Shown one piece after another: positions 3,469 through 27,406 of a stretch of DNA of 64,000 nucleotides. Position 1 is the stretch's first letter, and each line of letters begins with the position of its first letter. This stretch comes from Escherichia coli (lineage in GTDB: Bacteria > Pseudomonadota > Gammaproteobacteria > Enterobacterales > Enterobacteriaceae), in NCBI RefSeq assembly GCF_048403405.1, contig NZ_CP183129.1. One strand, 5' to 3'. A program made the translations under genes and the position numbers. The notes under the pieces were generated by a model, which was given only the letters and a program-made list of their open reading frames with translations, was not told the DNA's origin and did no database searches.

Positions 3469-5703
<2,235 letters not shown>

Positions 5704-15031: not shown

Positions 15032-15304
15032 ATGGTCACAGTTAACCTTCATTGTCCCCGTTGCCAGTCCGTTCAGGTTTACCGTCACGGGCAGAACCCC
15101 AAAAGACATGATCGATTCCGCGGCCGTGACTGTCACCGGGTATTTCAACTCAGTTACTGTTACGAGCCCCGTAAACCGGGAGTTAAAGACCAAATCGCTG
15201 AAATGGCTTTCAACGGTGCCGGGGTTCGCTATACTGCCCGTACGCTGAAAATCGGCATTAATACAGTCATCCGAACTTTAAAAAACTCTCGCCACGAAGA
15301 ATAA
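15032..15304 (+). CDS. insA: IS1 InsA (zinc-finger / HTH transposition inhibitor)
   Basis: 90 aa MVTVNLHCPRCQSVQVYRHGQ... aligns with IS1 InsA by eye. Confidence 0.8.
   Translation: MVTVNLHCPRCQSVQVYRHGQNPKRHDRFRGRDCHRVFQLSYCYEPRKPGVKDQIAEMAFNGAGVRYTARTLKIGINTVIRTLKNSRHEE
15280..15286 (+). promoter_or_regulatory. A6C programmed -1 ribosomal frameshift motif of IS1 (aaaaaac)
   Basis: Motif at the insA 3' end, as in canonical IS1. Confidence 0.6.
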
Positions 15305-15322
15305 CGTCATCCCCGGTCGCTC

Positions 15323-15738
15323 ATGCTGATGTGGCACTCATCTGCGAACGTAGTCAGCAATGGAGCTTTGTCGGCAGTAAAGCGCGACAGCACTGGCTCT
15401 GGTACGTGTACAACACGAAAACTGGTGGTGTTCTGGCCTACACTTTTGGCCCCCGGACTGATGAAACCTGTCGTGAACTGCTGGCGCTGCTTACCCTTTT
15501 ACCATCGGCATGTTGACCACTGACGAATGGGGTAGTTACGCTAGAGAGTTACCAAAGGAGAAGCATCTGACTGGTAAGATTTTTACTCAGCACATTGAGC
15601 GTAACAATCTGACCCTGAGAACCCGAATCAAACGTCTGGCCCGCAGAACCATCTGTTTCTCGCGTTCTGTAGAACTTCATGAAAAAGTCATCGGTGCTTT
15701 TATCGAAAATATATGTTCTACTAATTGGAGTCATCACC
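15323..15738 (+). pseudogene. insB: IS1 insB, interrupted by an additional frameshift near 15480-15510; reading frame also runs past the right IR
   Basis: InsB-like sequence split between two frames (…AYTFGPRTDETCRELLALLTLLPSAC* / …PFTIGMLTTDEWGSYARELPKEKHLTGKIFTQHIERNNLTLR…). Confidence 0.6.
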
Positions 15739-15793: not shown

Positions 15794-16117
15794 TTACCTC
15801 ATTCTGCTCTTTTTTCTCAAATGACATATATTATATTTTACATCATATTCATAGGTATATGACATTCCCCCGCCCCCCATTATGTCATTGTGGGTTGATG
15901 TTGGGCTTTCATAAAAAAATACATCTTTTTTTGAACTAGCATTAATTATATTTACTTTATATATTAAAATATTTTCTCCATCTGGAAATATTTTAGCCAC
16001 ACAATATAAAGCAGCTAAATCCGAATTACTTAAAAATATATTGTCATCACTCATAACTCCAGCCATTAAATGACTGGAGACTAAAGCAAGGAAATAACAA
16101 CATTGTATTGCCTTCAT
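15794..16117 (-). CDS. putative immunity protein for the orphan Rhs C-terminal toxin
   Basis: 107 aa from ATG 16117 (MKAIQCCYFLALVSSHLMAG...), GGGAG RBS, start 1 nt after the orphan rhs-CT stop; N-terminal hydrophobic segment; AT-rich. Confidence 0.55.
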   Translation of the reverse strand: MKAIQCCYFLALVSSHLMAGVMSDDNIFLSNSDLAALYCVAKIFPDGENILIYKVNIINASSKKDVFFYESPTSTHNDIMGGGGMSYTYEYDVKYNICHLRKKSRMR

Positions 16118-16118
16118 T

Positions 16119-17654
16119 TTAATTACTCCCTTGCCTGATAATTGCAACTCCATTCCCTTTAGCTTTGGGATTATATTTTAGATAGGTGTTATTTGGTGTT
16201 CCCAAGTAACTACTGTATTCTTTTTTTCCCATTCCATTCATATAAGAATTCGTTAAATCTTTGCTTGAAAAATTTAGACTATCATAAACATCATTTTCTT
16301 TTGTTACTTTATTTCCTTTATCGTCAGAGTAAAAACCGTGAGTGTGATAATCACCTACTCTCTCTGAACCTTCAGGGCATTTTATATTTCGCAAGTCTAC
16401 ACTATCATTATCATTTGAACTTATCGGATTCATAGGGAAATATTCACCTTGCTTCTTACATATTAGTCCACCATATTCTTTATTCTTGTTAATTGATTCT
16501 CCATTACACATTGCCAATGCAAATATTCCAATATCATCTATATTTTTTGATTTAAATTCATATAATCCTAATGGATCCATGCCATTCACCGGGCTCAGCG
16601 GATATGTATACAGGTTCCATCCCCCCTTCAGCCCAATCGGATCCTGAGTGATATACCGCCCCTGCAGCGGGTCATAATAGCGGTGGCGGTTGTAATACAG
16701 GCCGGACTCCTCATCATACTGCTGACCCGGCAGGCGGATGAGCTGCTGCAGCTGATGCGGGTTCTCTTCATTCAGCTGGTTACCCCATTCATCGTATTCT
16801 GCGCACCATTCTGTTGCCCCTTCCGTGCTGACAAGCGCCAGCGGCAGGCCGCGATGGTCGCAGTGGTACAGGTGGATTTTTCGCGCCGGCGTGTACACCG
16901 GGTCCATCTGGTTTTGTATCTGCTCCACCGTCAGGCCGCACGATGCCAGCCAGCGGCGGCTTTCCTCGCTCACCCGGTCAGCCAGGATTTCACTTTCCAG
17001 CCGGTCGAGCATCTGCACCAGCACCGGCGGGAACACCACACTGCCACCGTCTTCACCGCCGGACTGCTGAAGCGCATCCGCCAGGCTGCGGCGCTGCGTT
17101 TTCGCCAGCTCACCGGTGGCAGTTTCAACTCTGATGAGTGGCGTGAAGCTCCCCGGCTGATAAACCGTCTGGATGCGGGTTCTGTCGTTCTGTATTGTGG
17201 TCAGCCGGTCGCCGTCCCAGCCGTACCAGGTCACTTCCGGTTTCCATGACAGCGACATCCAGCCCGTCAGGTCCCGTTCACGCCGCCATACCCGTTTTGC
17301 CACCCTGCGGCCCAGCAGGTCGTAAAGATAGCGACTTTCGACCAGCGGCTCTGCATATTGTGTCCGCGTGTAGTGCACCAGCCGGTGCCGGCTGTCGTAA
17401 TGGTACCGGTGAGTCCGCTCATCATCCGTGCGGATAACCCCTTCCGGGATGAGGTCGGTTTTCTCCGTCAGCCTGCCGTGACGGTCATACCGGTAAAGAT
17501 AGTGCGCGTCACGGGCGATACGGTTATCCGGCCATGCGCTGAGGGGGCTGTCCGGGTGCAGCTCCGGGTCGGGCAGGCGGTTGCCTGCCGGGTCCGTGGC
17601 ATACGGGATATCAATGCCCAGGTTACATATAATAATAAGAGCAATTAACTTAAT
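16119..17654 (-). CDS. orphan Rhs C-terminal module: 5'-truncated rhs core ending in the DPLGL motif plus a distinct ~150 aa toxin tip; no start codon of its own
   Basis: Frame is open from 17654 but first ATG/GTG/TTG is at 17378; residues ...[22 protein letters not shown]...[39 protein letters not shown] are near-identical to the main rhs; tip contains YHTHG. Confidence 0.7.
16606..17608 (-). repeat. ~1.0 kb direct repeat (orphan copy) of the rhs core 3' region
   Basis: Near-identical to 20946..21938 (only scattered mismatches on visual alignment). Confidence 0.8.
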
Positions 17655-17981
17655 TTATTTGTTTATAATGCGCTTACTTAATACAAACCATTGAATATAC
17701 CCTCCTGACAGAAAATAAAGCCATATTATTATCGCCATAATATACTTACTATCAATCCTTACGCCAATAATGTCTGAAACAGTCCCTATAAATATTAGAG
17801 CAATAAAGAATACTATGCCTGTTGGAAAACAGATTACCATCATTCCATAAGACATGAGACTAATTAACTCGCTCACATCACGAGTGGAGTCTAATAGTGA
17901 AAGTCTATGCATGGAAAAGAATAGTATTAAAAGCGATAAAGCCAGCCATATAGCTCTGAATAAAAAAATAATATATTTCAT
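17655..17981 (-). CDS. small polytopic membrane protein (108 aa), candidate stranded immunity protein
   Basis: MKYIIFLFRAIWLALSLLILFF...; about three hydrophobic helices; AT-rich; stop codon directly abuts the orphan rhs frame. Confidence 0.4.
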   Translation of the reverse strand: MKYIIFLFRAIWLALSLLILFFSMHRLSLLDSTRDVSELISLMSYGMMVICFPTGIVFFIALIFIGTVSDIIGVRIDSKYIMAIIIWLYFLSGGYIQWFVLSKRIINK

Positions 17982-18059
17982 TACATCACTCCGGTGAATA
18001 CAAATCTAATAAAGCGTCCAATGTTATTTCCGGAGCACTTCATCTTACATGTTTCTAAA

Positions 18060-19260
18060 GAATCATTAGACCAGTCAGGGCAAGATTACGAAAGCCCGCT
18101 CCCCGCAAGGACTGACGCGAGATAGTTTCTGTCCATGGCTGCTTTTCGCATCTTACGTCTTAACCCTGCCTTGAATACCTTATCATTCGTCAAAATATTA
18201 ATAGCAATGTGCCGTATCCCTGAAAATAATTCTGCTGCGTTTCCTCTTCTTATTTTGCAGTCGTCTTCATTCATTACCACGTCCAGACGCCAGTGCAGCT
18301 TATTCTCCACGTGCCAGTGGTTTCGGATTGCTGTGGCGAACTTCTCAGCGGTTAAATCAGCAGAGCTGATATAATATCTGACCGTCATTTCTGGCTCTTT
18401 CTTTTGTTCTGCTATTATTGACCGAAAGGAGACTGCCACGTATAATTTTTCAGTCCTTTCCATTCAAATGTAAAATCAATAAGTTCATCAGGGACATCGC
18501 AAACAATATGAAGACGGATTTCTTCTCTGCCGTGACTCTTTTCACTAATTGCGTAACTGTCATGCTCTGGATTAATTAATTCTTTCAGCGGAAATGTTTC
18601 CTCAAAGGCTTTATTCAGCCGCCCCTGGTTTCCTTTTACAGCGAATAAGTAATCACCACCCTGTTTTTGTATCTTCTCTGCAATATCTTTCTGGCAACCC
18701 ATCGCATCAGTTGTGATGATTTTCTCTTTAATATACAAAATGTTAAGAAGTTCAGGGATAGCTGTGATCTCATTAGATTTCTCATCCGTCCTGATCTGCC
18801 CCAGGACCAGAATGTGCATTGTTGAGAACGCACTAATGACATGAATCGCTCCCCTGCGGCGACTCTTGTCATAAGAATGCCGGAGTGTTTTTCCATCAAT
18901 TGCGATGACGTCTTTATCATCTGAAGTATGGCAATCTCGCATCCAGTTAATAAAGCACTCGTGAAATTTTGCAGGACTGATACAGGATACAACTCTGGCG
19001 ATGGTATCGTGAACAGGAATACCATTTTCAAAATCACCGTATTGTTTTAAAAAATCGAGATGTGTTTCCCCAAAATCCTCTATATCTTCCCAACCTTCTG
19101 CACCCGAAATAACGGCACAAATAGTCAACAGTAGAATATCCGATAATTTATGTTCCACTTTCCAGGCTTGTCTGTAATCGGGGATAATAGAAATATGCTC
19201 CATCAATTTTTTAAGTTCCATTTTGTTCTCCTTAATTATGTAAGGAGTATTTGATCATGT
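18060..19260 (-). mobile_element. H-repeat / ISAs1-family element (approximate boundaries)
   Basis: Contains the H-rpt transposase; termini not defined by eye. Confidence 0.5.
18086..19221 (-). pseudogene. H-repeat-associated (ISAs1-family) transposase, split by a frameshift near 18415-18463
   Basis: 268 aa N-terminal piece ([28 protein letters not shown]...) and 125 aa C-terminal piece (…[21 protein letters not shown]…) in different frames. Confidence 0.75.
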
Positions 19261-19324: not shown

Positions 19325-19920
19325 TTATTTAGTACAAAAAAGCAGCGTTACGTGATCTTTCCCTGGCATGTCATTAGATGAACCAGTTATACAACCCTCG
19401 GAACAGAATCGAGGTCCTAAAGACGGACCAAAAGCGTTTAAACAACTATGTATTGAAAATCCATTACGATTATAAGTTCCTGTATTAACTGACGGTACTA
19501 ATCGTATGCCGTCAGGTTTTCTATTGCTTGCTCCCGGGTCATTAACATTCCAACTCCATAGGCCTTGAGGTATTGGCCCTCTATTTATAAATGTGTACAA
19601 CGGGGATTATTTTTACATTGCATATTATTACCAGAAGCGACTGGAATACTAAGCACATCATAAAAATTATCATCACCTGGTATATCTGAAACACACGAAA
19701 GCATACCTAAAGTTATGCTGTATAAACAGGTGGCTAATCCCAAGGGGATCGATTCCAGAAATCGGGTTCAACGGATACTGATAAAAATTCCACCTACCTT
19801 CCAGCCCAATCGGAGCCTGAGTGTTATACCGCCCCTGCTGCGGTTAATGTTACCGATAATAGTTATAGTACAGCCCTGATTCATCATCATACTACTGCTG
19901 CGGCAGTCTGATGAATTATT
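19325..19920 (-). pseudogene. degenerate orphan rhs-CT remnant (rhs core 3'-end fragment with stops and intact DPLG codons, then a decayed tip)
   Basis: 19770..19920 is roughly 75% identical to the rhs core end by eye; translation gives [51 protein letters not shown] then a stop; 91-aa ORF 19325..19600 follows. Confidence 0.55.
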
Positions 19921-19924
19921 GCTT

Positions 19925-20392
19925 TTACGGATTCTCCTTATTCTTCCTTCTATCCATTCGCTTTAGCTTTAGCTTTTTGAGATCTTGAAGTTTGCTCTTT
20001 GCATCAATATTACCGTTATTTACAGCGAATTCCATCCAATAAATAGCTTTATTCAAATTATAATGTTCTGATAATATTGGATTTGTATCCGATAAAAAAA
20101 ACCCATAATTAAACTGCGCTGTAACACTCCCCTGAGATGCTGATCTTTCTAAGTATCGCAATTGTTTGTAAATGTTATTTTTAGTAAAGCAGTAATATTG
20201 ATATAGTCGAAATGATGCCTCTGAATCACCATGTTGTGATTTATACTTCAGTTTCATCAACTTTTCTTCACTTAAATCATAGGTCATTGCTGTAGACCCC
20301 ATCATACTTTCGTTTTGTTTTATTTTCACATCAGCACCATGCAATTGAAAAATAAAAGAGAAATAAAAAAATAGTAACAAGCATGCTTTCAT
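19925..20392 (-). CDS. putative Rhs immunity protein, secreted, Sel1-like repeat
   Basis: 155 aa; signal peptide MKACLLLFFYFSFIFQLHGA; Sel1/TPR-like segments (…ASQGSVTAQFNYGFFL…, …AIYWMEFAVNNGNIDA…); starts 12 bp after rhs stop; AT-rich. Confidence 0.6.
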   Translation of the reverse strand: MKACLLLFFYFSFIFQLHGADVKIKQNESMMGSTAMTYDLSEEKLMKLKYKSQHGDSEASFRLYQYYCFTKNNIYKQLRYLERSASQGSVTAQFNYGFFLSDTNPILSEHYNLNKAIYWMEFAVNNGNIDAKSKLQDLKKLKLKRMDRRKNKENP

Positions 20393-20403
20393 ACATCTAC
20401 AAC

Positions 20404-23400
20404 CTATCTTATATCACTGGGTTTTTCTGGCGTACCTTGCATATTAGAAATGGGGTGCCCAGATGGCCCATATGTTATCCAATTACCAAGGTCTTTTGTT
20501 GTTATAGCCATTAGATCCTTATTTGAATTAAGGTTCGTTGGTGCTGTTAGCACTGTATCCATTTTTAACTTACCATTAGTTCCTCGCCCCCACCACGTCC
20601 ATAGCGTGTCAGGTCCTATTACATTTGTATGTAACTCTTTAGCTAATTGGCTAGCAAATGAATTTTGTCCTTTACCTGTATTACAAGAAAATAACCAAAC
20701 TGTCATCCCATCTTTATAATTCCCATCAAATTTAATTAGATATGCTAGATCTTTAGCTGTCATGATACTGCGCGTTGCGGATTCAATAGATGTGGGGGTA
20801 CCATGCCCCCCGATTGTGAAAACGCCTGGGATATTAATCTCATCAGCTACAGAATGGATAAGATCACTTTCGGGGTATAAATTTATATCAACCAAACCTT
20901 GCGGATCTACATTTATGACCGGATCCAACGGATACTGATAAAAATTCCATCCCCCCTTAAGCCCAATCGGATCCTGAGTGATATACCGCCCCTGCAGCGG
21001 GTCATAATAGCGGTGGCGGTTGTAATAGAGGCCGGACTCCTCATCATACTGCTGACCCGGCAGGCGGATGAGCTGCTGCAGCTGGTGCGGGTTCTCTTCA
21101 TTCAGCAGGTTGCCCCATTCATCGTATTCTGCGCACCATTCTGTTGCCCCTTCCGTGCTGACAAGCGCCAGCGGCAGGCCGCGATGGTCGCAGTGGTACA
21201 GGTGGATTTTTCGCGCCGGCGTGTACACCGGGTCCATCTGGTTTTGTATCTGCTCCACCGTCAGGCCGCACGATGCCAGCCAGCGGCGGCTTTCCTCGCT
21301 CACCCGGTCAGTAAGGATTTCACTTTCCAGCCGGTCGAGCATCTGCACCAGCACCGGCGGGAACACCACACTGCCACCGTCTTCGCCGCCGGACTGCTGA
21401 AGGGCATCCGCCAGGCTGCGGCGCTGCGTTTTCGCCAGCTCACCGGTGGCGGTTTCAACTCTGATGAGTGGCGTGAAGCTCCCCGGCTGATAAACCGTCT
21501 GGATGCGGGTTCTGTCGTTCTGTATTGTGGTCAGCCGGTCGCCGTCCCAGCCGTACCAGGTCACTTCCGGTTTCCGTGACAGCGACATCCAGCCCGTCAG
21601 GTCCCGTTCACGCCGCCATACCCGTTTTGCCACCCTGCGGCCCAGCGGGTCGTAAAGATAGCGACTTTCGACCAGCGGCTCTGCATATTGTGTCCGCGTG
21701 TAGTGCACCAGCCGGTGCCGGCTGTCGTAATGATACCGGTGAGTCCGCTCATCATCCGTGCGGATAACCCCTTCCGGGATGAGGTCGGTTTTCTCTGTCA
21801 GCCTGCCGTGACGGTCATACCGGTAAAGATAGTGCGCGTCACGGGCGATACGGTTATCCGGCCACATGCTGAGGGTGCTGTCCGGGTGCAGCTCCGGGTC
21901 GGGCAGGCGGTTACCTGCCGGGTCCGTGGCATACGGGATGCGGATATCCAGATTCGCTGCGGTGGTGTGGACGCCGGTCAGCCTGCCGGTGTCGCTGTAG
22001 CTGTAACTCCGGGTCTGGCGCGGGCTGCTGATGCGGATGAGTTCGCCGTTGTCGTTCCAGGTGTAATCGCGGTCATACTGCAGGCTGTTCAGGTGCTGGC
22101 TCTGTAACTGCCCGGCAGAGGTGTAAGCGGTGGTGAGTTCATAACGGCCGAAGCTGCGCAGCGTTTCCCGGTGCAGGCGGTCGCGGGTGAAATCCACCAG
22201 CGGTGTGTCGCCGAGTTTCATGCCTGACAGCCAGCCGCTGCCGTAGGTCAGCCATTCCACGGCGGGCAGGCTGTCCGGTATACAGCGGTTCGCCAGTCCC
22301 TGCGCGTTGTACGCATGTCTGGTTTCATGCTGCCAGAGCAGTGCTTCCGTCTGCGGGTGATGCACCGTCTGGCGCTCACCGGTCAGGCGGCCTTTCTCAT
22401 CATACCCGTAATGCACCGTCACCCGGTGGCCTTCGCTGAGATGGCTGATGCCTGTCAGCCAGCCGCGTTCGTCGTACCGCCACTGTTCTGCGGTTTCACC
22501 ATTCACCGTTCGCTGTGTGATGCGGTCTGCTTCGTCATAGTGCCAGTGGGTGACCAGCCCCTCATCCTCGCTGCGGATAAGTTTGCCGGTCAGGTCGTGG
22601 TGATAACGCTGTGTGCGGCCGTCAAAGCCGGTTTCCTGTATCAGCCGGTCAAGTACATCGTAACGGAAGGTGGTGTGGCTGCCGTTTTCACTGGTCAGGC
22701 GGATGACCCGCCCGGCAGCATCGTATTCCATACTGCGCGTCAGACCGCCCTGCGTGGTACGGATGGCCTTTCCCCACGCATCGTACTGTGTCCCGTTTCT
22801 GCTGTCGTCCGGGGCAATGACGGCGGTCAGGTCACCGGCGGCGTTGTATTCATACCGCGTTTCATGGCCCTGCATGTCTTTCACCGCAATTAACTGTCCA
22901 CGGCTGTCGTATGCGCGGTACTGGCTCAGGCCTTCCTCGCGGTGCACCGTCGTCACCTGACCAAAACGGTCATGGTCATAGCGGGTTACATAACCGGAAC
23001 AGTCGGTAAAGCTCAGCAACTGACCGTAACGGCTCCACGTCATGGTTTTCCGGCTGCCGGTGGCATCTTCCGTTGCGCAGGGGAAGTCACTGTGTGGATT
23101 ATCATAACGGTAGCGGGTGATATCGCCGTCAGGGGCGGTTTCCTGAATCAGACGGCCGGATTCATCATATTTGCGGCGCAACTCCAGCCCGTCAGTCCCG
23201 GTGGCTGACGTTAACTGGTTGTGGTGGTTATAGTAAAATGCCGATGCCCTGCCATCCGGTGTGGTGATGCGCGTGATGAGTCCCGTCACCACATCCGGGC
23301 TGTACTCAGTCGTCCGGCCTGCGGCATCCGTCTGTGCCTTAAGCCTGCCCACCGCATCAAACTGACTCTGCGCGACGCTGCCGTCCGCGTGTTCCTTTTT

Positions 23401-24633
23401 CACCACCCGCTTCAGCCCGCCTTCGCCCTGCGTGTGCAGCACTTCACGGCGGTCCAGACTGTCGGTGATGGTGATGCGGTCTTTCTCATACTGATACGTG
23501 TAGCTTAAGCCTGCCGGGTTTAGCTGCTCTGTCACCCGCCCGTCGCTGTCGTAACGGTAACGGATTTCCGGCCGGCCCGCGCGGCGGTGCGCCACCATCC
23601 GGCCCCGGTATTTATCATCGTAAGTAAAGCTGCGCACCTGTTTGCCACTGCGGTCATACACCGCCGCCAGTTCGCCGCGTGGCGTCCAGCCATAGCGCAC
23701 CAGCGGCGCGGCAGGTAAATTCTCCGGGTATTCAGGGTCGTGTGTCAGCCACACGGCAGACAGACGGATACCGTTGTCCCGGCCATATTCCGTGTAGTCC
23801 GGCAGGGTATCAGGAAAAGCGGACGGTTCCGTCCCGCCGGAAGTGGCCTTCTGCCGGGCCTCTTCTGCCCGCTGCGCCTGCGTGGTCAGTACCAGCCGGA
23901 AGTGACGCCCGGCACCATCCGTCACGCCGGTGATTTCGCCGCTGAATTCACCGCCAGCCTCACGGTGAAACGTCTGTGTGCGCCCGAAGCGGTCCACCAG
24001 CCCGGTCAGTACCCGGTACGGCGGCAGCGGCGCGGGCAGCACCTCATCCGCCTCCGGCACCTGCTCACACCAGCCGAGTACCCACCACGGCCCCTGCGGA
24101 CTGTTTGTCGCCAGATAACGATGCGGACTCAGGCGGAGTTCTTCCGGCAGCGCCTGCCAGAGTGCGGCCAGCCGGTGACCTTCATCCAGTTTCAGGACAC
24201 CGCCACGCACCAGCCAGAGTGATTCGCTGCGGCTGTAACCGTCCTCACCGGGAAACAGGTGCTCAAAATACAGGCTCCTGCCGCCGTTATCACTGAGTAT
24301 CAGTGTGTTATCGCGCAGCTGTAGGCGGATATCCGCAGGCATTTTCCAGCCGGGGCCGAGGCTCCCCACCGGCGCGGGCGTTTTTGTCCGGTAACTGCTG
24401 TAGGTGCGGGAGAGGATGAACGGCAGCGGGCCGGGCAGGGCAAGGTCGGTTTCGCCGGGAAGGACCTTCGCACCGAGCAGCGGATTGACCGGATGGCCGG
24501 ACGTCACCCCGCCGGGGCACACCGAACAGGCCACGCCGGTGGGGGCACCAATACGTACCCCGGCAGAACCCTGAACAATGCTACCGCCATACTGCGTCAT
24601 GTCGCCCTGACGCGCCGCCGGTTTTCCGCTCAT
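20404..24633 (-). CDS. rhs: Rhs-family polymorphic toxin (PAAR-like N-terminus, YD repeats, core ending PxxxxDPxGL, variable C-terminal toxin tip)
   Basis: 1409 aa; N-terminus [31 protein letters not shown]; many YD-type repeats; ...[14 protein letters not shown] followed by a ~162 aa AT-rich tip. Confidence 0.9.
20946..21938 (-). repeat. ~1.0 kb direct repeat (main rhs copy) shared with the orphan rhs-CT
   Basis: Near-identical to 16606..17608. Confidence 0.8.
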
Positions 24634-24792: not shown

Positions 24793-25044
<252 letters not shown>

Positions 25045-25048
25045 CTAA

Positions 25049-27406
<2,358 letters not shown>

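Follow-up and report, generated by a model that had tools for sequence, protein, structure and literature searches.

The window analysed here, a 64,000-nt stretch of Escherichia coli DNA, carries a main rhs gene and, downstream of it, a start-less rhs fragment that ends in a toxin tip of its own and is followed by a small immunity gene. This locus raises the question of whether the second tip is a usable toxin held in reserve, an inert remnant or a toxin that is already made. Our conclusion is that the orphan is an ordinary, already described displaced Rhs toxin-immunity tip (Jackson 2009; Poole 2011; Koskiniemi 2014). Such a module would probably have an immunity gene that is translated on its own and a toxin part that is not canonically made yet is intact and can be re-armed by recombination.

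Organization of the rhs locus

The window includes the rhs locus of E. coli that is flanked by rpmE/priA on one side and yiiX/metJ on the other. All of the features described below lie on the minus strand. The main full-length Rhs (20404..24633, 1409 aa) has an N-terminal DUF6531 domain, a weak PAAR match (E=0.13) and a tip of the K-12 yibJ type, and is followed by the Sel1-repeat immunity gene of that tip, which is of the K-12 yibG type (19925..20392). Next come a degenerate rhs core-end/tip fragment (19673..19914), which is 74% identical to the orphan core end, and a frameshifted transposase gene of the ISAs1 (H-repeat) family (18086..19221). A K-12-type rhsC tip, cut short by the ISAs1 element to its last ~105 nt (17981..18085), adjoins ybfB (17655..17981), a membrane-protein gene that serves as immunity gene to the rhsC tip of K-12. 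One locus joins parts of K-12 rhsA (yibJ/yibG), parts of rhsC (the ybfB/ybfO junction) and the resident tip.

The orphan rhs-CT open frame (16119..17654) opens directly behind the ybfB TAA stop and in frame with ybfB. As an earlier sequence-only reading had stated, it is open over its whole length, 511 codons plus the stop, and contains no in-frame ATG, GTG or TTG in 17654..17379, as evidenced by both a mechanical ORF list and our own independent scan. The first such codon is the GTG at 17378, which has no Shine-Dalgarno (SD) sequence (duplex of -1.7 kcal/mol). The first 15 codons (17654..17610) are an AT-rich spacer after ybfB and not rhs, and Rhs homology begins at 17609. The core part is therefore ~345 aa long rather than the 320 aa given in that reading, although its description as the core 3' end with an intact DPLGL was correct. 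The PxxxxDPxGL autocleavage/demarcation motif lies at 16562..16591 (DPLGL at 16577..16563), and the tip that follows is 147 aa long, in keeping with the earlier estimate of ~150 aa, and ends at the TAA at 16121..16119. The orphan core has a GC content of 62%, whereas the tip (30.5%) and its immunity gene are at ~30%. The N-terminal ~1,060 aa of Rhs, which form the PAAR/shell delivery part, are absent. In an identical genome, 17624..16119 carries a RefSeq pseudogene call, and the product is given as a partial RHS repeat-associated core domain-containing protein with a missing N-terminus. A search of Rfam gave no match in the orphan element and only the L31 leader upstream of rpmE.

Judged from its relatives, the missing start codon is partly lineage-specific. 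A GCA at 17537..17535 replaces an in-frame ATG (..LSMWPDN..) that is kept in K-12 ybfO, in SE11, in the main rhs of the window and in LH85-a, the one other orphan-state genome translated. No ribosome-binding site is visible at this ATG either.

The proposal that the element is an orphan rhs-CT with its immunity gene is borne out by this anatomy and by the RefSeq annotation of the identical genome. First, a 5'-truncated, core-homologous fragment lies downstream of a full-length rhs in the same orientation. In addition, the fragment has neither a delivery part nor a canonical initiation signal, with the caveat of a non-canonical SD and CTG at 16613. Finally, PxxxxDPxGL is followed by a low-GC tip and then by a short immunity ORF that has an SD and a start codon to itself.

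The orphan tip is a DUF4329 (Tox-JAB-2) domain

The earlier reading had likened the tip to the DUF4329-type tips of K-12 RhsA and RhsB and named an HMM search as a check. In this search, 16161..16523 matched Pfam DUF4329 (PF14220) with an i-Evalue of 6.8e-15 over model positions 6-108 of 116, and the conservation of the family motifs and the predicted fold likewise support the DUF4329 assignment. Pfam also matched RHS (PF03527) in the orphan product. DUF4329 is the Tox-JAB-2 domain of Zhang et al. 2012 (PMC3482391). The likeness to RhsB held (32% identity, E=7e-15; KE[YF]xGLICK and YHTHG in common). The likeness to RhsA did not, and the RhsA tip was rejected as a relative, as it has no HTH motif and its alignment rests on the DPLGL flank.

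The DUF4329 family set comprised 375 representatives at E<=1e-3. In the family alignment of 82 sequences, E31 and H77 are invariant, and 90% or more of the sequences conserve H75, T76, S101 and D104. The tip of the window keeps every one of these residues; the putative catalytic-motif codons are those of E (16478..16476), HTH (16346..16338), S (16268..16266) and D (16259..16257). The structure model of the tip (pLDDT 94) predicts a JAMM/MPN metallohydrolase fold, with the deaminase-like alpha+beta arrangement of JAB/MPN domains. When the PDB was searched with the tip-family profile, the only sequence matches were to the Rhs flank (DPxGL region) of solved Rhs/Tc proteins, and the toxin domain itself was unmatched. 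We found no determination of the biochemical activity of Tox-JAB-2 in the literature consulted. DUF4329 tips rank with the most frequent tips on the Rhs proteins of E. coli and Salmonella, and the element bears on their substrate.

The immunity gene dsORF-f3

The immunity gene (15794..16117, 107 aa; "RHS element protein dsORF-f3" in RefSeq) has its own SD and ATG. The earlier description of a start 1 nt after the orphan stop with a GGGAG ribosome-binding site was accurate: a single base separates the TAA from the ATG at 16117, and GGGAG lies 8 nt 5' of this ATG (anti-SD duplex of -7.9 kcal/mol). dsORF-f3 occurs in E. coli only, and its product matched no Pfam family, even at E<=10, and no NCBIfam family. 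Its N-terminus is hydrophobic, as is that of YhhH, the Imm-NTF2-2 immunity protein of K-12 RhsB; otherwise, it has no similarity to YhhH or to PF15631 (Imm-NTF2-2). We made no fold call for dsORF-f3, because its AF2 model, built on a 15-sequence, E. coli-only alignment, reached a pLDDT of only 37.6.

Imm-NTF2-2 has been reported as the usual partner of Tox-JAB-2 in E. coli (PMC3482391). Its absence here concerns the partner and is not defining for the Tox-JAB-2 domain.

The orphan core is a direct repeat of the main core

The Rhs core 3' end carried by the orphan (16615..17609, ~332 codons) is a direct repeat of a segment within the main rhs (20945..21939). The two copies lie 4,330 bp apart in the same orientation and in register, with 19 differences in 995 nt (98% identity). 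A match of this length and identity puts the orphan feature far beyond chance. The recombination-ready architecture that the sequence-only reading had described is indeed present. A crossover between the repeats would remove 4,330 bp and place the orphan tip on the end of the main Rhs. The same excision would also cost the cell the Sel1 immunity gene that belongs to the present main toxin.

We compared the codon changes unique to each copy. The orphan core has 5 non-synonymous and 3 synonymous changes and the main core 1 and 6, counts that are too small for significance. The changes in the orphan core include a P-to-L substitution in a YDPLGR repeat and the triple substitution that destroys the in-frame ATG. 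These changes suggest a relaxed constraint on the orphan core; if so, a crossover close to the 5' end of the repeat might yield a fusion that works less well. The two cores also share derived variants, which together with their 98% identity suggest ongoing gene conversion between them.

The same tip in armed and orphan states

Of the 5,426 complete E. coli genomes, 2,170 (40%) carry the tip and immunity pair, and only 215 have the orphan-state block. Most of the sampled carriers of the pair are annotated with a full-length Rhs that ends in the tip. In SE11, a 1374-aa Rhs ends in this tip and is followed by dsORF-f3 and then IS1 at rpmE-yiiX-metJ; SE11 is the one genome opened for the locus position of an armed copy. 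Three amino acids separate the tip of the window from that of SE11. An identical 2.6-kb arrangement, at ~100% identity, occurs in six independent complete genomes. The 14 complete genomes whose tips are most similar are all in the orphan state, and none of them showed a switched (recombinant) allele. The element has little discovery value, as it is already in the RefSeq annotation and the pair is widespread. The same tip is visible species-wide in both states, and the locus would serve well as a teaching case for the displacement of tips.

These data bear on the possibility that the orphan is an inert relic, a decaying remnant of a past displacement that is kept by linkage to the immunity gene, or unselected, and is never re-used. 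We regard this as rather unlikely. The non-synonymous bias of the orphan-core changes and the lost ATG fit a relic, as do the RefSeq pseudogene call, the neighbouring fragment at 19914..19673, which has already decayed and has an internal stop, and the uniform orphan state of the close relatives. Jackson et al. (PMC2935791) also deem such fragments "likely to be functionally silent" and state that many are degenerate. However, all 147 codons of the tip are open in a sequence of 30% GC, the tip is close to the allele on the full-length Rhs of SE11, and all of its conserved catalytic residues are kept. The near identity of the core repeat to the main core, with the shared derived variants, likewise argues against decay, and the substitution bias rests on the small counts given above.

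A model for displacement and re-arming

The displaced but re-armable module follows the displacement model for Rhs tips of Jackson 2009 (PMC2935791) and the description by Poole 2011 (PMC3150448) of orphan modules that lack initiation signals and whose immunity genes are expressed. In this lineage, a block has been inserted in front of the old tip; it consists of the yibJ/yibG-type tip and immunity gene, the tip fragment, ISAs1, the rhsC tip end, ybfB and the truncated core with the K-12 ybfB-ybfO junction. A circular intermediate could have brought the block in by one crossover within the core, or a double crossover could have used the core repeats. The insertion would have left the old tip on a 5'-truncated core with no promoter, start codon or PAAR/shell part. 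dsORF-f3 would be translated alone and would guard the cell against E. coli strains that carry the toxin on a full-length Rhs, apparently about a third of complete E. coli genomes. The toxin part would not be made by canonical initiation, yet would stay intact. RecA-type recombination at the 995-nt repeats could then re-arm the tip by excising the 4,330 bp and restoring an SE11-like full-length Rhs. The re-armed Rhs would be expected to cleave at DPLGL and to deliver the JAMM-fold toxin, presumably via a type VI secretion system (T6SS).

Possible internal expression of the orphan

The displaced-module reading takes the toxin part to be expressed only after recombination, which is plausible. 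We also considered that the orphan is not silent. Transcription from within or just upstream of the fragment, together with a non-canonical start just before DPLGL, would then produce a small free toxin that dsORF-f3 restrains, and the orphan and dsORF-f3 would form a T6SS-independent, toxin-antitoxin-like addiction or regulatory module. This is improbable in our assessment, and the sites that bear on it are as follows. An SD-like AAGGGGGGA (anti-SD duplex of -11.3 kcal/mol) precedes the in-frame CTG at 16613 by 6 nt. In addition, a CAGGATCCGATTGGGCTG stretch is conserved in the orphan with a CTG at 16634, resembling the AGGA and CTG of Salmonella ORF1. It appears to carry the ribosome-binding site and CTG of the toxic Salmonella ORF1, an assignment that is our reading of a published figure. 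Both AAGGGGGGA with the CTG at 16613 and AGGA with the CTG at 16634 could permit low-level internal translation. However, the CTG at 16613 is missing from the LH85-a orphan variant.

The promoter scan found promoter-like sites on the minus strand at 17767..17728, inside ybfB and just upstream of the orphan. No terminator-like site was found on the minus strand of the scanned region, including the stretch between ybfB and the orphan. Against this, the promoter-like sites of the region were not above those in shuffled sequences (17 vs 12.9 +/- 3.8), and the scan found none on the minus strand in 16600..16800. The counterpart of the Salmonella P2 promoter was rejected as a candidate: it reads ATGATG-17-TACAAC here vs TTGACG-17-TACAAT, is degenerate, lacks the final T of the -10 element and was not called as a site by the scan.

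There is precedent for such expression in Salmonella and EHEC, in which orphan or C-terminal Rhs toxins are made from internal promoters or CTG starts, as for the orphan Rhs of Salmonella Typhimurium and RhsF/RhsG of EHEC (PMC7043789, PMC7618764). EHEC RhsF/RhsFI (PMC7618764) was rejected as the same element; it lies at another locus (ECs0604) and has another toxin, with structural homology to nucleases. It is relevant here only as an internal-promoter precedent.

A more specific form of expression, from AAGGGGGGA and the CTG at 16613, would be a low-level free toxin that acts as a JAMM-fold metallo-(iso)peptidase, and not as the "RNase" of annotation papers, with a target in the cell envelope. 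We hold this to be very doubtful. Given that dsORF-f3 and YhhH both have signal-peptide-like N-termini, the toxin target would be the cell envelope. A search for secreted stand-alone DUF4329 proteins gave little, and this candidate class was rejected: 15 of the 16 short members inspected were orphan-like fragments or had no hydrophobic N-terminus. The Salmonella DUF4329 immunity proteins have "No" in a table field that we took to denote a signal peptide or TM segment. Because secreted DUF4329 candidates are few and the Salmonella immunity table reads "No", the idea of a periplasmic target stays weak.

Rhs cores occur in several copies, which draft genomes often assemble wrongly, and an assembly or annotation artefact such as a mis-joined rhs repeat could be imagined on that general ground, but its probability is negligible and it is refuted by the six independent complete genomes with the 2.6-kb arrangement and the 215 with the orphan-state block.

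Comparison with known systems

The displaced-module reading places the orphan beside several described elements. K-12 ybfO (rhsO)/ybfC is the closest in its junction: the ybfB stop, the 45-nt spacer and the start point of the truncated core are base-for-base identical to those of the window, and the cores differ at 31 of 995 nt (~97% identity). Each of the two is followed by an immunity-type ORF and each is flagged as a pseudogene. They differ in the tip, which in ybfO is unrelated, non-DUF4329 and followed by ybfC, in the in-frame ATG, which ybfO retains where the window has GCA, and in the chromosomal locus (kdp-phr for ybfO vs rpmE-metJ for the window).

The full-length Rhs of SE11 has the locus, tip, dsORF-f3 and downstream IS1 remnant in common with the window. 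In SE11 the tip ends a complete Rhs, whereas in the window it sits on the 5'-truncated core behind a 4.3-kb insertion. According to their annotation, O157:H7 and O55:H7 genomes also have the same tip on an Rhs called full-length. The "RhsB" z5488 of PMC7216683 may be the same gene as this full-length Rhs, which is an assumption on our part. The yiiX-priA position is listed for rhs by Jackson 2009 (PMC2935791) as position 11.

The orphan rhs-CT/rhsI of Salmonella Typhimurium LT2 (Koskiniemi 2014; Starsta 2020) is likewise a start-less fragment homologous to the core; it is found downstream of the main rhs, with an immunity gene of its own behind it. Recombination between the main gene and the orphan has been shown to re-arm the Salmonella orphan (Koskiniemi 2014, PMC3967940). 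The LT2 orphan differs in its core clade and its toxin, and its P2 internal promoter is not conserved in the window.

The GC contrast between core and tip, the name dsORF-f3 and the yibJ/yibG and ybfB/ybfO components of the window invite comparison with the RhsF element of the Hill laboratory (RhsA-B-C-F subfamily). The RhsF of Zhao and Hill (1995) is said to have a GC-rich core, an AT-rich extension and dsORF-f3, and to be a composite of RhsA and RhsC components. Going by the name dsORF-f3, the element in the window may be this RhsF of ECOR-50.

Structure of the orphan rhs-CT frame

The truncated rhs-CT frame (17654..16119, minus strand; hereafter the orphan) is open over 511 codons, and its earliest ATG, GTG or TTG in the mechanical ORF list is GTG 17378, as the sequence-only reading had described. 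A scan of all in-frame candidate starts revealed no Shine-Dalgarno (SD) sequence before GTG 17378 (-1.7 kcal/mol). The product comprises, in order, 15 AT-rich spacer codons, about 345 aa of the Rhs core 3' end, a motif with DPLGL, and a 147-aa tip, the variable C-terminal toxin part. The core and tip were therefore present as proposed, except that the core is longer than the suggested 320 aa or so and its rhs homology begins at 17609, not at 17654 where the open frame begins. The stop codon TAA (16121..16119) is followed after 1 base by the ATG of a 107-aa ORF, the immunity gene dsORF-f3 (16117..15794, minus strand), and GGGAG sits 8 nt 5' of this ATG, in agreement with the claimed spacing and ribosome-binding site. 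Given that the frame, core, motif, tip, stop spacing and immunity ORF were all found, every element of the original observation is present. The TAA stop of ybfB (17655-17657, minus strand) is in frame with the orphan, so a single stop codon parts YbfB from the 511-codon open frame. This junction is identical in K-12 ybfB-ybfO and is therefore inherited; the shared frame is probably a coincidence.

The toxin tip

The HMM search proposed for the tip was performed on the orphan product and matched DUF4329 (PF14220; E=6.8e-15, residues 378-498), as well as the RHS core-end family PF03527. The suspected resemblance to the K-12 Rhs tips held for RhsB (32% identity, E=7e-15, YHTHG common to both); RhsA was rejected, as the comparison showed no relation. 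When 1.84 billion representatives were scanned in full with HMMER, 375 relatives passed E<=1e-3, many of them forming the C-terminal end of a long protein. Two residues, E31 and H77, never vary in an alignment of 82 sequences, and conservation reaches at least 90% at H75, T76, S101 and D104; the orphan tip has all six. Zhang et al. 2012 (PMC3482391) report DUF4329 as Tox-JAB-2, with conserved E, H[ST]H, S and D and links to Rhs, T6SS and T7SS, suggesting nuclease rather than peptidase activity. Papers naming the DUF4329 toxin an RNase cite bioinformatic assignment.

Core repeat and gene order

The orphan core (17609..16615) was compared with that of the main rhs, the full-length Rhs gene upstream. 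It aligns ungapped with 21939..20945, in the same orientation and 4,330 bp apart; 19 of the 995 nt differ (98.1% identity). The two sequences are unrelated on either side of this repeat, 5' of 17609 and 3' of 16615. At 62% GC, the core stands apart from the tip and immunity gene at 30%, the classic rhs contrast between a high-GC core and a low-GC extension.

Six complete E. coli chromosomes share the 2.6 kb around the orphan at 100% identity, and the gene order was taken from one of these as annotated in RefSeq. Beyond the main rhs lie priA and rpmE. Then follow, all on the minus strand, the main rhs ('RHS element core protein', full-length, 24633..20404), a sel1-repeat protein (20392..19925), a small rhs fragment with an internal stop (19914..19673, annotated in RefSeq as 19891..19673), a frameshifted ISAs1 transposase (H-repeat; 19221..18086), a 105-nt remnant ORF (18085..17981), ybfB (17981..17655), the orphan ('RHS repeat-associated core domain-containing protein, missing N-terminus', 17624..16119) and 'RHS element protein dsORF-f3' (16117..15794). 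A frameshifted IS1H on the plus strand (15032-15724), yiiX and metJ complete the order. The name dsORF-f3 presumably derives from the RhsF element of the Hill laboratory (Zhao & Hill 1995). The locus, yiiX-priA, is rhs 'position 11' of Jackson et al. (2009).

The module is bracketed by two inactivated insertion sequences: ISAs1, which cuts the rhsC-type tip down to its last 105 nt, and IS1H, which lies just 3' of the immunity gene and is present in E. coli SE11 too. The fragment directly following the Sel1 gene is a third, degenerate rhs core-end copy, 74% identical to the orphan's, of whose tip only a short piece is left; this copy is an older orphan that has decayed. An L31-Gammaproteobacteria ribosomal protein leader (25012-25064, minus strand; Rfam, 60 bits), an ordinary feature, lies upstream of rpmE beside the main rhs start.

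Distribution and the armed state

The tip and immunity DNA was found in 2,170 of the 5,426 complete E. coli genomes, in every case on the chromosome, with identities of at least 95% in all 2,170 and of 97.6-100% among the matches listed. When the query was extended upstream by the ISAs1 end, rhsC-tip remnant and ybfB (coverage at least 80%), only 215 genomes showed the orphan state. In the remaining carriers, the match ends exactly where core homology starts; most of those sampled have a gene of full length there, called 'RHS element core protein' or 'rhs element protein RhsC' in the annotation. A toxin matching the orphan tip appears to be carried on a full-length Rhs (the armed state) in roughly one third of complete E. 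coli genomes. We opened this arrangement in detail in one genome, SE11. There, an Rhs of 1374 aa at the same rpmE-yiiX-metJ locus carries the orphan's tip at its end (3 aa apart from ours), directly followed by dsORF-f3 and the IS1 remnant. Recombination between the window's two repeats would give exactly this arrangement. No switched (armed) allele was found in the 14 complete genomes whose tips come closest to the orphan's; every one of them shows the orphan state, which gives no direct indication of recent switching.

Origin of the orphan

From about 18082 to 17610, which covers the last 105 nt or so of the rhsC-type tip, ybfB and the 45-nt spacer, the window matches the K-12 rhsC-ybfB-ybfO region base for base, and the truncated core starts at the same base in both. 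The orphan 3' end (linker, tip and immunity) matches that of the SE11 main gene. The main rhs tip and Sel1 gene (19925-20944, minus strand) correspond to yibJ/yibG of K-12, a module that sits as an orphan at the rhsA locus both there and in most of the 3,436 genomes carrying it; the module armed here is thus an 'orphan' module elsewhere. With its parts traced to these three sources, the locus is a mosaic of known parts. We infer single-crossover integration as the simplest history. An incoming 4.33-kb element carrying the truncated core, yibJ-type tip, yibG, fragment, ISAs1, rhsC-tip end and ybfB would have recombined once with the core of an SE11-like resident gene and so become integrated, leaving the resident tip on the truncated core that it brought in; a crossover in reverse would remove the element again. 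This history fits the model with a circular intermediate put forward by Jackson et al. (2009; PMC2935791). The linker before DPLGL (16562-16615) varies among orphan-state genomes: the window's equals SE11's save for a G that is S in SE11, and that of LH85-a, another orphan-state genome, differs from the window's and resembles K-12 RhsB. These differences point to further breakpoints of recombination at the very boundary of core and tip.

Silent or expressed

The anatomy, core repeat, Pfam match and RefSeq names bear out an orphan rhs-CT and immunity pair with a DUF4329 tip, which is quite probably a Tox-JAB-2 tip displaced, along with its immunity gene, at the rpmE-metJ rhs locus of E. coli. 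The present role of the displaced module is most likely to keep an independently expressed immunity gene against the toxin, beside an intact but unexpressed orphan toxin that could be re-armed through excision of 4,330 bp. That it is an inert relic is doubtful.

A TA-like module that is not silent is less probable still. Expression is favoured by promoter-like hexamers inside ybfB and by an in-frame CTG (16613), 12 codons 5' of DPLGL and 6 nt after the SD-like AAGGGGGGA (16613-16630, minus strand; -11.3 kcal/mol), which encodes conserved LKGGW. In the main rhs, as in the LH85-a orphan, this codon is TTT. The CTG could serve as a non-canonical start, as a CTG is reported to do in a Salmonella orphan Rhs; the Salmonella ORF1-type AGGA...CTG is conserved in our orphan, with CTG at 16634. 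Internal expression of Rhs C-terminal parts is reported in Salmonella (PMC7043789) and EHEC (PMC7618764). The orphan counterpart of the Salmonella P2 promoter is degenerate (ATGATG-17-TACAAC), and promoter-like sites in the region showed no enrichment over shuffles. Silence is favoured by the lack of a canonical start and by the in-frame ATG (Met of ..LSMWPDN..), which is GCA (Ala) in the orphan through three adjacent substitutions (17537..17535, minus strand). Among the four sequences compared (K-12 ybfO, SE11, the window's main rhs and the orphan of LH85-a, the one other orphan-state genome translated), all keep the ATG and none has GCA. The codon changes unique to the orphan core (5 non-synonymous, 3 synonymous; 1 vs 6 unique to the main core), although few, also fit a relaxation of constraint on this part.

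The immunity gene and comparison with known systems

No Pfam or NCBIfam family matched dsORF-f3, and the comparison with YhhH/PF15631, the RhsB immunity protein, revealed no likeness. All named homologues are from E. coli, with none in other named taxa; the rest are unnamed fragments. The structure model was uninformative (pLDDT 37.6). Some gene callers start the protein at Met22, but SD strength (-7.9 kcal/mol for Met1 vs -3.3 for Met22) favours Met1 as the predicted start. The first 20 or so residues (MKAIQCCYFLALVSSHLMAG; 16058-16117, minus strand) are hydrophobic and signal-peptide-like, and the N-terminus of K-12 YhhH (yhhH, 4900-5283 of its locus) is likewise. Were the toxin a cytoplasmic RNase, as is assumed in the literature, such starts in two Tox-JAB-2 partners would not be expected. 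In Salmonella, the DUF4329 immunity proteins seem to be without such a segment, as we read the table field 'No' (PMC10469887). The Tox-JAB-2 substrate and these odd, exported-looking N-termini of E. coli immunity proteins are the remaining threads of interest. The interpretation first drawn from the sequence was essentially right, and the orphan is an already known kind of element, indeed one already annotated.
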